A stretch of DNA of 63,835 nt, counting the filler. It is 6 parts of 6 records of this genome, joined end to end, with 100 filler letters (N's around TTAATTAATTAA, not from the genome) between each part and the next. Parts side by side here need not be neighbours in the genome. Positions count along the whole stretch, not along the records: positions 1 to 26,907 come from DRR723986_5108; 5 more parts are not named here. One strand, given 5' to 3'. The number at the start of each line of letters is the position of its first letter. Positions within the stretch are counted from its first letter, which is position 1. The notes below the pieces were generated by a model, which was given only the letters and a program-made list of their open reading frames with translations, did no database searches and was not told the origin of the DNA. Position numbers and translations under genes: made by a program. This document shows positions 8,135 to 23,008 of this stretch, one piece after another.

Positions 8135-10417
<2,283 letters not shown>

Positions 10418-10442: not shown

Positions 10443-10487
10443 GGGGCACCCCGATCCCGGGTCGCGCTTTGCTTGCCCGGGATGACG
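10443..10487 (-). repeat. CGTC-tagged palindromic repeat, copy A
   Basis: Minus strand reads CGTC-ATCCCGGG-CAAGCAAAGCGCGA-CCCGGGAT-CGGGGTGCCCC. Confidence 0.9.
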
Positions 10488-10506
10488 ACTGAAAGGTTTT
10501 TACCAG

Positions 10507-10568
10507 ACCTATCTTCGTCATCCCGGACGCAGCGCAGCGGAGATCCGGGATCGGGGAGCCACCCCAAA
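10507..10568 (+). repeat. CGTC-tagged palindromic repeat, copy B (left direct repeat of GIY-YIG gene)
   Basis: ACCTATCTT-CGTC-ATCCCGGA-CGCAGCGCAGCGGAGA-TCCGGGAT-CGGGGAGCCACCCCAAA. Confidence 0.92.
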
Positions 10569-10595
10569 CCTCTCGAAACCCGGAGTGACCATCGC

Positions 10596-10883
10596 TTGAC
10601 AGCCTGGGTCTACATCCTTGCCTCGCGACCGTTCGAAACTCTTTACACGGGCGTGACGACGGACTTGGCCCGCCGGGTTTACGAGCACCGCGAAGGTCTG
10701 ATTGTGGGTTTTTCCTACCGATACGGAACGAAATCCCTGGTCTGGTACGAACAGCACGAAGAGAGCGGGGCCGCGATTGCCCGCGAAAAACAGATCAAGC
10801 GTTGGCGCCGACAATGGAAATTCGATCTGATCGAGAAGATGAATCCGGGCTGGCAGGATCTCTATCTGGAGCTCAATCGGTAA
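10596..10883 (+). CDS. Stand-alone GIY-YIG nuclease family protein (95 aa)
   Basis: AWVYIL..LYTGVTTDLARRVYEH..LVWYE..AIAREKQIKRWRRQWK..LIEKMNPGWQDL. TTG start at 10596 with GGAG about 10 nt upstream. Confidence 0.9.
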   Translation: MTAWVYILASRPFETLYTGVTTDLARRVYEHREGLIVGFSYRYGTKSLVWYEQHEESGAAIAREKQIKRWRRQWKFDLIEKMNPGWQDLYLELNR

Positions 10884-10896
10884 TCATTGTCCGGAC

Positions 10897-10960
10897 ACCT
10901 ATCGTCGTCATCCCGGACGCAGCGCAACGCAGCGAAGATCCGGGATCGGGGAGCCCCAAA
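10897..10960 (+). repeat. CGTC-tagged palindromic repeat, copy C (right direct repeat of GIY-YIG gene)
   Basis: ACCTATCGT-CGTC-ATCCCGGA-CGCAGCGCAACGCAGCGAAGA-TCCGGGAT-CGGGGAGCCCCAAA; nearly identical to copy B. Confidence 0.92.
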
Positions 10961-11111: not shown

Positions 11112-11768
11112 ATGTCGGATATTAAAGTCAAAATCTGCGGTCTTTCGACCGAGGACACCATGGCGGCGGCGCTGGATGCCGGTGCCGATATGGTCGGGTT
11201 GATGTTCTTCCCGAAGAGCCCGCGTCATGTGTCGCTCAGCCAGGCCTGCCGGCTGGCCGATATGGCGCGCGGCCGGGCGGAGATCGTGGCGGTAACCGTC
11301 AACATGGATCTCGACGGCCTGTCGCGTATCAACGAGCTGGTGAAGCCCGATACATTCCAGTTTCATGGCGAGGAAGCTCCGGAAGCCCTGGCAGCGGCCA
11401 AGGTGATGCAGGGCACCAAGGTCATGAAGGCGATTTCGATTTCCGACCGTTCAGATCTGGAGCAGGCGCACTATTATGCTGTTGTGGCAGATCGTCTCCT
11501 GTTCGATGCCAAGCCGCCGAAAGGGTCCGAACTGCCTGGCGGTAACGGCGTTTCCTACGACTGGACGATCCTGAAAGACCTTGACCTGAAGAAGCCCTTC
11601 ATGCTTTCCGGAGGACTTGATCCGGAGAACGTCGCCGAGGCGATCCGTTTGAGCGGCGTCAGCGAGGTGGATGTTTCCTCCGGCGTCGAGCGGGAAAAGG
11701 GCGTCAAGGACAGTGGTCTCATTCGCGCATTCTTGGCGGCGGCCAAGGGCGTCAAGGTTCCGGGCTGA
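11112..11768 (+). CDS. trpF: Phosphoribosylanthranilate isomerase
   Basis: VKICGL, FFPKSPRHVS, QFHGEE, LSGGLDPENV, DVSSGVE. Confidence 0.96.
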   Translation: MSDIKVKICGLSTEDTMAAALDAGADMVGLMFFPKSPRHVSLSQACRLADMARGRAEIVAVTVNMDLDGLSRINELVKPDTFQFHGEEAPEALAAAKVMQGTKVMKAISISDRSDLEQAHYYAVVADRLLFDAKPPKGSELPGGNGVSYDWTILKDLDLKKPFMLSGGLDPENVAEAIRLSGVSEVDVSSGVEREKGVKDSGLIRAFLAAAKGVKVPG

Positions 11769-13080: not shown

Positions 13081-13174
13081 TGTCATCCCCTTCGCCAAGA
13101 GAAAGACCTGGTGCCTGCTGGTCATCAATGCGGGTTTTGGATAAGGCCGACGTTCCGCTTTGACCGCGATGACA
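13081..13174. repeat. Degenerate convergent pair of YGTC-tagged repeats
   Basis: Ends TGTCATC...GATGACA match the 5' tag of the repeat family. Internal stems are decayed. Confidence 0.45.
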
Positions 13175-18950: not shown

Positions 18951-19115
18951 TGTCATTCCGGACAAGTGAGGCAAGCCGAACGCAGATCCGGAATCCAGAT
19001 GCTTTTCGCGCCTAAGGCGCGGCCGCTTCTTCTTTCAAGCGGGTTTCGCTTCGCTCATGCTGATGTCTGGATTCCGGATCTGCGCGCATCGATGCTGCGC
19101 TTGTCCGGAATGACG
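18951..19115. repeat. Inverted doublet of YGTC-tagged palindromic repeats (REPIN/MITE-like, 165 bp)
   Basis: Left TGTC-ATTCCGGA-CAAG..GCAGA-TCCGGAAT-CCAGA (18951-18999). Right, on the minus strand, CGTC-ATTCCGGA-CAAG..GCAGA-TCCGGAAT-CCAGA (19066-19115). Confidence 0.9.
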
Positions 19116-22973: not shown

Positions 22974-23008
22974 TGTCATCCCGGGCAAGCATGGCGGAAC
23001 CCGGTTCG
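22974..23008 (+). repeat. Degenerate solo copy of the YGTC-tagged repeat
   Basis: TGTC-ATCCCGGG-CAAGCATGGCGGAA-CCCGGTTCG. Shares GTCATCCCGGGCAAGCA with copy A. Confidence 0.75.

Follow-up and report, generated by a model that had tools for sequence, protein, structure and literature searches.

A small GIY-YIG nuclease gene among CGTC-tagged hairpins: a probable Ssn-family member with long-loop repeats

What does a stand-alone GIY-YIG nuclease gene do in the midst of a cluster of palindromic repeats? The question is raised by a locus in the window, by which we mean the whole 63.8-kb stretch of DNA that was analysed. Here a gene for a protein of 95 aa lies between maeB and trpF and is surrounded by hairpins that carry a CGTC tag. 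A preliminary description of the locus proposed that the protein is the nuclease that recognises the tagged hairpins and also spreads them, gene and repeats together forming an autonomous element analogous to a REP/RAYT system. It knew of no enzyme for CGTC repeats. This was indeed the conclusion in 2013, when Di Nocera, De Gregorio and Rocco (BMC Genomics; PMC3733652) defined the CGTC-tagged REP superfamily and, in the part of their report available to us, described these REPs as lacking a dedicated enzyme. However, the statement has been outdated since March 2025, when Chenal et al. (Nat Commun; PMC11893778) described the Ssn nucleases together with their NTS/SRM hairpin repeats, as the accessible part of that paper sets out. 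In our literature search for GIY-YIG proteins and REP-type or CGTC repeats, theirs was the only report found to link both. The partnership of nuclease and repeat is therefore already known, and the window adds one more example of the family.

The gene and its hairpins

The gene, which we refer to as ssn, is an open reading frame with a TTG start whose coordinates (Table 1) include the stop codon. Its product matches the Pfam family GIY-YIG (PF01541; E 1.3e-12, residues 3–75). The Pfam search detected no other family and no accessory DNA-binding domain, and the NCBIfam search returned no matching model. The motifs VY (residues 5–6), YTG (17–19), RR (26–27), EH (30–31) and REK (63–65) can all be read in the translation. 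The open reading frame, the Pfam match and the translation thus agree with the preliminary description of a 95-aa GIY-YIG gene with intact motifs, and the two neighbouring genes confirm its position between maeB and trpF. Further out, the upstream side has mutS and the downstream side a PLP-dependent gene with a PALP domain that reads as trpB. A search for sigma-70-like promoters at the locus found none. RNA-library contigs of public runs span ssn, although contigs alone are no evidence of expression; the public-run contigs reveal neither transcription nor excision.

The hairpins were searched for across the window with the pattern TCATCCCGG N8-38 CCGGGATCGGGG. There were exactly three matches, at 10449–10485 (−), 10518–10556 (+) and 10908–10951 (+), and the same pattern had no match in 100 dinucleotide-preserving shuffles. 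This agrees with the initial observation of three CGTC-tagged hairpins around the gene, a divergent pair upstream and a single copy downstream. In each flanking copy a CGTCAT head is followed by an 8-bp stem (ATCCCGGR / YCCGGGAT) that encloses a loop, and by a CGGGGWGCC tail. Upstream of ssn, hairpins A and B face each other as a head-to-head doublet, their heads about 28 nt apart. B and C are direct repeats, and their likeness reaches about 9 nt upstream of the tag (10507–10542 vs 10897–10932, 92%). Fold computation predicts that the 8-bp stem closes in A, B and C as single-stranded DNA; the z-scores of the three flanking copies against shuffles are −1.5, −1.8 and −2.7, so that fold energy alone is only modestly unusual. 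The extent of the repeat can be read from contigs of four public runs, which carry other repeat copies and part from the window at 10513–10518 and 10556–10561. These points of divergence delimit a repeat unit of about 10516/7–10560, from the tag to GAGCC, and the sequence upstream of it is not common to the copies. Such unshared sequence upstream of the tag is consistent with cutting in a variable flank.

Table 1. Positions of the genes and hairpins discussed in the text
Feature	Position	Strand	Description
maeB	8135-10417		malic enzyme with PTA_PTB domain; upstream neighbour of ssn
Hairpin A	10445..10487	-	CGTCATCCCGGG, 14-nt loop, CCCGGGATCGGGGTGCC; upstream of ssn
Hairpin B	10516..10560	+	CGTCATCCCGGA, 16-nt loop, TCCGGGATCGGGGAGCC; end 35 nt before start codon
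ssn	10596..10883	+	single-domain GIY-YIG nuclease, 95 aa (open reading frame, Pfam, gapless alignment)
Hairpin C	10906..10955	+	B-type, 21-nt loop; 22 nt past stop codon
trpF	11112-11768		PRA isomerase; downstream neighbour of ssn
Gene-less hairpin, other subtype	18951..19002	+	TGTCATTCCGGA, 24-nt loop, TCCGGAATCCAGA
Gene-less hairpin, partner of 18951 copy	19063..19115	-	CGTCATTCCGGA, 25-nt loop, TCCGGAATCCAGA; fold z-score -3.9
Decayed solo copy	22974..23004	+	TGTCATCCCGGGCAAGC...CCCGGTT; 3' arm damaged

Family members without a gene had also been suggested at 18951, 19115, 22974 and possibly 13081. The copies at 18951 and 19115 are real but of a different subtype, ATTCCGGA...TCCGGAATCCAGA, and form a tail-to-tail pair. 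The same subtype also flanks the second ssn paralogue of G001, the genome nearest to the window. The copy at 22974 is decayed, and the site at 13081, where only the start GTCATCCCC is present, is not counted because it has no 3' arm.

Relationship to the Ssn nucleases

According to the part of the 2025 paper available to us, SsnA of N. meningitidis, a protein of 94 aa, binds the NTS (CGTCATTCCCGCGMAVGCGGGAATCYRG, a dRS3 subset) in single-stranded form only, with cleavage a few nucleotides upstream of it (PMC11893778). In the same part, the substitutions Y6A, Y17A and E64A abolish cleavage, binding depends most on the C after the palindrome and cutting most on the three bases in front of it, and three further Ssn homologues bind and cut their own CGTC-tagged hairpins as single-stranded DNA (PMC11893778). 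In the window protein, Y6, Y17 and E64 stand at the same residue numbers as these catalytic residues. We aligned 11 sequences, namely the window protein, four proteins of the genus Neisseria, one from a gammaproteobacterial MAG and five paralogues from the window's own genus. The alignment has 95 columns, sequences are unaligned at the ends only, and Y6, Y17, R27, H31 and E64 are invariant.

The similarity to Neisseria proteins is strong. Among 61 genomes of that genus, sampled around the N. lactamica genome, a homologue of the window protein was found at E ≤ 0.01 in 21, and at E ≤ 1.9e-22 in 19 of these. The best whole-genome score was E 3.5e-36, and identities ranged from 48 to 63%. A tblastn comparison with 12 fetched Neisseria-genus loci gave E values from 2e-36 to 4e-29. 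Seven of the 12 loci contain the exact published NTS, ten have an NTS-like hairpin within 400 bp, and one holds 15 exact NTS copies in 3.3 kb. To small GIY-YIG genes of Neisseria-genus genomes with such NTS or NTS-like flanks, the window protein aligns without gaps at 53–63% identity. E values below 1e-10, the limit used in the paper, were obtained against Neisseria-genus homologues, not against the N. meningitidis protein itself. Outside that genus, the homologue from the gammaproteobacterial MAG (54% identical) lies 23 bp from an exact NTS. Only two of 120 loci chosen solely for an exact NTS contained a homologue, a proportion that tells little, since a single gene serving many repeats would lead one to expect it.

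A protein of 91 aa, the sole small GIY-YIG protein of N. lactamica NS19 and N. mucosa, two genomes reached by the exact-NTS scan in which the window protein has no match, was considered and then dropped, being UPF0213-like as judged from its sequence and having no NTS copy in its 3.2-kb locus in N. lactamica. A sequence search of the PDB with the window protein returned only the UPF0213 protein BH0048 (1zg2), a weak match (E 0.0044). In view of the Neisseria-genus homologies, the invariant residues and the weakness of this one UPF0213 match, the window protein is, by sequence comparison, very probably a member of the Ssn family and not of the YhbQ type.

The hairpins call for a closer comparison with the published SRM string, HGTCWYN(0-2)YYVSBRHN(0-5)WNVSBRGN(0-2)RNCYNB. 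None of the three hairpins A, B and C matches it, and in the whole window it has two matches, at 22974 and 24540. The string misses the flanking copies because their loops are 14–21 nt long where 0–5 are allowed, and because the tail continues from C to G and not to a pyrimidine. On the other hand, the positions found critical by mutagenesis (the GTC before the palindrome, the palindrome itself and the C after it) are present in the flanking copies. The string itself serves as a search aid. The accessible part of the paper gives SRM motifs as adjoining the gene in 71% of homologues across bacteria (PMC11893778); as the string misses long-loop repeats, this figure is probably an underestimate for long-loop lineages.

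Association, history and spread of genes and repeats

We next consider how closely genes and hairpins go together. Genome-wide counts refer to G001, which is the nearest genome (30% shared words), and to its genus, not to the window's own genome. G001 encodes an orthologue 95% identical to the window protein and four paralogues with identities of 60, 54, 52 and 45%. A strict hairpin pattern (GTCATYCCGG N6-45 CCGGRAT) found 59 hairpins in G001, all of them on the 6.15-Mb contig, vs 0 for the reversed pattern that served as control. Sorted by eye, they comprise about 19 B-like and 13 A-like hairpins, 14 of the ATTCCGGA type, 8 with a GGTTTG loop and 5 others. Four of the five ssn paralogues of G001 are flanked by tagged hairpins, each by its own subtype (ATCCCGG long-loop, ATTCCGGA, ATCCCCGCG and ACCCCGGG), and the fifth is without any.

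Across the genus, at least one homologue is present in 70 of 72 genomes, with 1–8 matches each, and the strict hairpin in 71 of 72, with 0–119 copies and every control at 0. A tagged hairpin lies within 300 bp of the gene in 29 of the 30 best homologue loci, and on both sides in 23. There are 4.4 hairpins per kb up to 300 bp from ssn, vs 0.31 per kb at 300–1500 bp. With 60 paralogue loci added, a tagged hairpin was found within 350 bp in 96 of 98 gene matches, which come from 94 loci. The enrichment of homologue flanks that the preliminary description had proposed to test for is clear. Seven hairpin types can be distinguished beside the ssn genes of the genus, and short-loop types flank other ssn paralogues. 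Single bases were compared in 65 hairpins that lie no more than 300 bp from one of 33 ssn genes. In 63 of these hairpins a C follows the 3' arm, a position that the detection left free. GTC is fixed by the detection pattern, and the base in front of it is C in 41, G in 11, T in 9 and A in 4.

Nuclease and hairpin type also follow each other in phylogeny. On a FastTree tree of 92 proteins, from which matches shorter than 80 aa were dropped, the dominant flanking hairpin type changes 16 times, vs 49–58 times in ten shuffles. This agreement may in part reflect common descent of whole loci; since related loci share their flanks by descent, the link between clade and hairpin fits cognate pairs without proving them. 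Two genomes, both draft assemblies, carry strict hairpins and no small GIY-YIG gene that could be found: G017 (94% complete, 300 contigs; 39 hairpins) and G079 (79% complete; 12 hairpins).

We consider it likely, with a probability of roughly 0.85, that the window gene encodes an Ssn-family nuclease and that the three hairpins are its recognition repeats, a long-loop SRM/NTS variant of the CGTC-tagged REP superfamily. The tagged hairpins very probably have their cognate enzyme in the small GIY-YIG protein, as had been proposed, because it belongs to a family for which this role has been shown biochemically (PMC11893778, in the part available) and because the association of gene and repeat in the genus is very strong. 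By analogy with SsnA, the protein would be a monomer-sized nuclease inactive on duplex DNA. It would act once the strand 5'-[C]GTCAT-stem-loop-stem-C turns single-stranded, for which replication forks, incoming transforming or conjugative DNA, and repair may offer occasions. The folded hairpin would be bound through the palindrome and the following C, and the hairpin strand nicked a few nucleotides 5' of the GTC tag. The predicted cuts would fall at about 10512–10514 (+) for B, 10902–10904 (+) for C and 10489–10491 (−) for A. Both binding and cleavage by the window protein are what we infer from its studied relatives. The sister-species genome G001 appears to carry several such nuclease/hairpin pairs side by side.

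Two other explanations leave the gene and the repeats unconnected. The hairpins might act mainly at the level of RNA or DNA structure, as terminators, mRNA stabilisers or nucleoid sites in permissive spacers, with the gene present incidentally. The 14-fold higher hairpin density near ssn, the presence of a hairpin at nearly all genes (96 of 98), and the different hairpin types of different paralogues make this very improbable, even though the 2013 report, in the part available, places REPs generally downstream of genes and regards them as possible RNA elements (PMC3733652), and even though the maeB–trpF spacer is variable in sister species, where it contains an ORF that reads as hydrolase-like or a different small ORF, or is empty. 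Moreover, the hairpins have no T-run, only two weak terminator-like sites were found vs 0.9 expected, an Rfam search gave only a chance-level miRNA match (E 0.17), and SsnA is described in the accessible text as not binding RNA (PMC11893778). We give even less credit to the idea that the protein has nothing to do with the repeats and is either a housekeeping protein of the UPF0213/YhbQ type or a free-standing homing endonuclease. It would suit the small size, the GIY-YIG domain and the fact that BH0048 (1zg2) is the only solved relative detected by sequence. Yet the E value of 0.0044 for BH0048 has to be set against values down to 3.5e-36 for Neisseria-genus homologues, a search with the window protein did not pick up the UPF0213-like 91-aa protein of N. 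lactamica, and the window protein lacks both the extra DNA-binding domain of homing enzymes and an NCBIfam match.

If the window gene is an Ssn nuclease with its recognition repeats, is it also a mobile gene? Of the 30 best loci, 18, from as many sister species, have the orthologue at the maeB–trpF site, and a second orthologue group, with 7 of the 30 loci, keeps another fixed context. In a sample of relatives comprising 25 genomes of the genus, ssn is present at maeB–trpF in 4, and the two genes are adjacent without ssn in 12; in the remaining 9, trpF is outside the fetched locus. Empty sites in sister strains, which the preliminary description had suggested looking for, are thus found in 12 syntenic genomes. 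Four of them have a short spacer without a hairpin (G020, G024, G006 and G025), G010 has a solo hairpin at the place of A, and G021 has a decayed hairpin. Elsewhere the site contains other ORFs, including one that reads as hydrolase-like and that occurs together with ssn in G019. In a tree built from the 518-nt end of maeB, with 40 rows of which 19 have ssn and 21 lack it, the presence of ssn changes at least 11 times, and at least five of the changes are forced by well-supported branches. Close pairs such as G016/G018 and G010/G073 differ in ssn at this site. Given the fixed site and the 76–95% protein identity, repeated loss of ssn is the simplest reading, and recombination between the flanking direct repeats could be its cause. 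As the G001 paralogues are only 45–60% identical to the orthologue, the gene has not copied itself recently. It has long been part of the chromosome, is inherited vertically and is often lost; it is no hopping element.

Copies of the gene's own repeat subtype were counted with the pattern GTCATCCCGG N10-24 CCGGGAYCGG. The gene clade was defined by at least 64% identity, leaving out one gene whose hairpins are of another type, and it includes three members with an internal stop. The median number of own-subtype repeats is 18 in the 27 genomes with the clade vs 1 in the 45 without, and zero copies are found in 1 of 27 vs 16 of 45. Across the 72 genomes, the number of strict hairpins correlates with Ssn copy number (Spearman 0.54, uncorrected for relatedness or genome size). 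However, 12 of the 45 clade-less genomes have at least 10 own-subtype repeats, and one of them, the complete one-contig genome G013, has 46. The repeats thus go with the gene, yet they can persist once it is gone. A search for a filled and an empty version of one hairpin site set G001 around 2570650 against the window, which has no counterpart of that stretch. Tandem gene-plus-repeat duplicates occur in five genomes (G013, G085, G074, G088 and G051).

With these results in hand, the idea of a RAYT-like replicator can be judged. It does not replace but adds to the preferred reading: the nuclease would multiply the hairpins, and gene plus repeats would be the autonomous mobile form. The repeat–gene–repeat layout does resemble an IS or RAYT locus, the correlation and the medians given above point the same way, as do the patchy presence of the gene at maeB–trpF and the tandem duplicates, and the authors of the Ssn paper raise the same idea of repeat spreading in the part of their discussion available (PMC11893778). 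Nevertheless, we regard the replicator as unlikely. Against it stand the two fixed contexts, the divergence of the G001 paralogues and the clade-less genomes rich in own-subtype repeats. GIY-YIG enzymes are hydrolases that are not known to form a covalent DNA intermediate or to perform HUH-like strand transfer. Any spreading would therefore go via host repair. The data weaken the autonomous-element half of the mobilisation idea, and its repeat-amplifier half may or may not hold. The proposal that the nuclease spreads its repeats as an autonomous gene-plus-repeat unit fares poorly against a site fixed in 18 species, paralogues at 45–60% identity and repeats that occur without the clade. In a still more speculative version, which we think rather doubtful, Ssn proteins are the propagating enzymes of CGTC REPs, and several nuclease/hairpin lineages in one genome each amplify or maintain their own subtype by nicking single strands that are then copied in repair. 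If so, doublet inversion and gene loss by recombination between flanking repeats would be side effects.

Comparison with known systems

Whether Ssn nucleases spread repeats is a question left by the 2025 paper, as far as its accessible part shows (PMC11893778), and the genus studied here offers natural material on specificity: up to 8 paralogues per genome, seven hairpin types, and close pairs that differ in the gene. Such material suits two subjects, the specificity of an Ssn protein for its own hairpin and the decay of repeats after gene loss. The peculiarities of the locus are the long loops, which lie outside the published string, and the several nuclease/hairpin pairs per genome. They are best seen by setting the system beside those already described.

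With the UPF0213/YhbQ proteins, represented by BH0048 (1zg2), the window protein shares a length of about 100 aa and the GIY-YIG core. In contrast, the similarity is marginal (E 0.0044), and the N. lactamica example of that group has a 3.2-kb locus without NTS.

The likeness to REP/RAYT systems is one of architecture. In both, one small gene stands among tagged hairpins and doublets of its own, hairpins in single-stranded DNA are what the enzyme recognises, and the gene is vertically inherited at a fixed site while the number of repeats varies. The folds are unrelated: GIY-YIG enzymes work by hydrolysis, whereas RAYTs are HUH enzymes of the IS200/IS605 kind with a covalent Y1 tyrosine. The tag is CGTC, not GTAG, and Ssn proteins are not known to transpose. 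The analogy first drawn for this locus therefore holds for the architecture but not for membership, as GIY-YIG is the only family matched by the protein and the hairpins are tagged with CGTC.

The hairpins resemble the CGTC-tagged REP superfamily more closely, having a CGTC/TGTC tag, an 8-bp stem that opens with A-T, a short unpaired tail, head-to-head dimers and mostly alphaproteobacterial hosts. They differ in their loops, which are 14, 16 and 21 nt long here vs 4–5 nt in the four described families, CGTC-1 to CGTC-4; the available part of the 2013 report notes other lengths in Bradyrhizobium CGTC-1 (PMC3733652).

The closest system is Ssn/SRM. The window gene encodes a single-domain GIY-YIG protein of 95 aa (SsnA has about 94) that keeps Y6, Y17 and E64; oriented hairpins with a [C]GTCAT head, an AT-opening stem and a C after the palindrome bracket the gene; and many repeat copies without a gene lie elsewhere in the genome. 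Whereas the biochemistry was done on SsnA and three homologues, the window member and the long-loop hairpins are known from sequence alone. Their loops of 14–21 nt and their CGGGG tail contrast with the NTS loops of about 4–5 nt, and the 59 strict copies of the sister genome with the hundreds found in pathogenic Neisseria. A further difference is that several paralogues, each with a separate hairpin subtype, share one genome.

The maeB–trpF spacer and the orientation of its hairpin doublet

The content of the maeB–trpF spacer varies among sister species (loci L009, from genome G019, L013, L018, L022 and L025). Several of them carry there a minus-strand ORF of ~258 aa, which, judged by its sequence, looks like an alpha/beta hydrolase. 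A different small ORF occupies the spacer of G017, and a small membrane-like ORF that of G023. Independently of ssn, the gene for the small GIY-YIG nuclease, this spacer is a hot spot where genes are gained and lost.

At 10445-10566 of the window, the head-to-head doublet formed by hairpins A and B appears inverted relative to ssn in contigs of two public sequencing runs, X3 (an isolate) and X12 (a metatranscriptome). When these contigs were compared with the window, they displayed joints between opposite strands, connecting 10445 to 10567 and 10443 to 10562. Contigs of runs X1 and X8 have the doublet in the same orientation as the window. Likewise, reverse-complementing the upstream doublet of G019 gives a 94.5% match to the G002 doublet across 73 nt (L009 compared with L018). 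The apparent inversion may reflect real flipping, with the inverted hairpins recombining, or may have arisen through misassembly of the repeats.

Tandem ssn genes and gene-less arrays

In five genomes, ssn paralogues occur as tandem pairs spaced by 540-730 bp, with hairpins in between (see table). These pairs represent gene-plus-repeat units that were duplicated locally. In G004 and the sister genome G001, A-like and B-like hairpins alternate with a period of ~195 bp and no gene between them, resembling clustered, BIME-like REP arrays.

Tandem ssn pairs and hairpin arrays (genome:contig:positions)
Feature	Location	Extent
Tandem ssn pair	G013:C1:4564422-4565278	
Tandem ssn pair	G085:C1:4044634-4045609	
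Tandem ssn pair	G074:C1:1361776-1362783	
Tandem ssn pair	G088:C5:1481140-1481947	
Tandem ssn pair	G051:C35:186533-187342	
Hairpin array	G004:C43:101620-102723	six periods
Hairpin array	G001:C1:1768661-1769086	~two and a half periods

Hairpin placement in the sister genome

One G001 locus, L206 (G001:C1:2569900-2571500), is crowded with tagged hairpins, which represent three or more types. We sought its counterpart in the window, where collinearity would be expected at ~58.7 kb, and found none. Since L206 is packed with hairpins and lacks a window counterpart, synteny between G001 and the window breaks at a repeat-rich island.

All 59 hairpins matching the strict pattern in G001 lie on its 6.15-Mb contig, C1, with none on C2 and C3 (together ~0.55 Mb), where ~5 would be expected. 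REPs have been reported to be restricted to core regions of the chromosome, and the single-contig placement of the G001 hairpins recalls this confinement.
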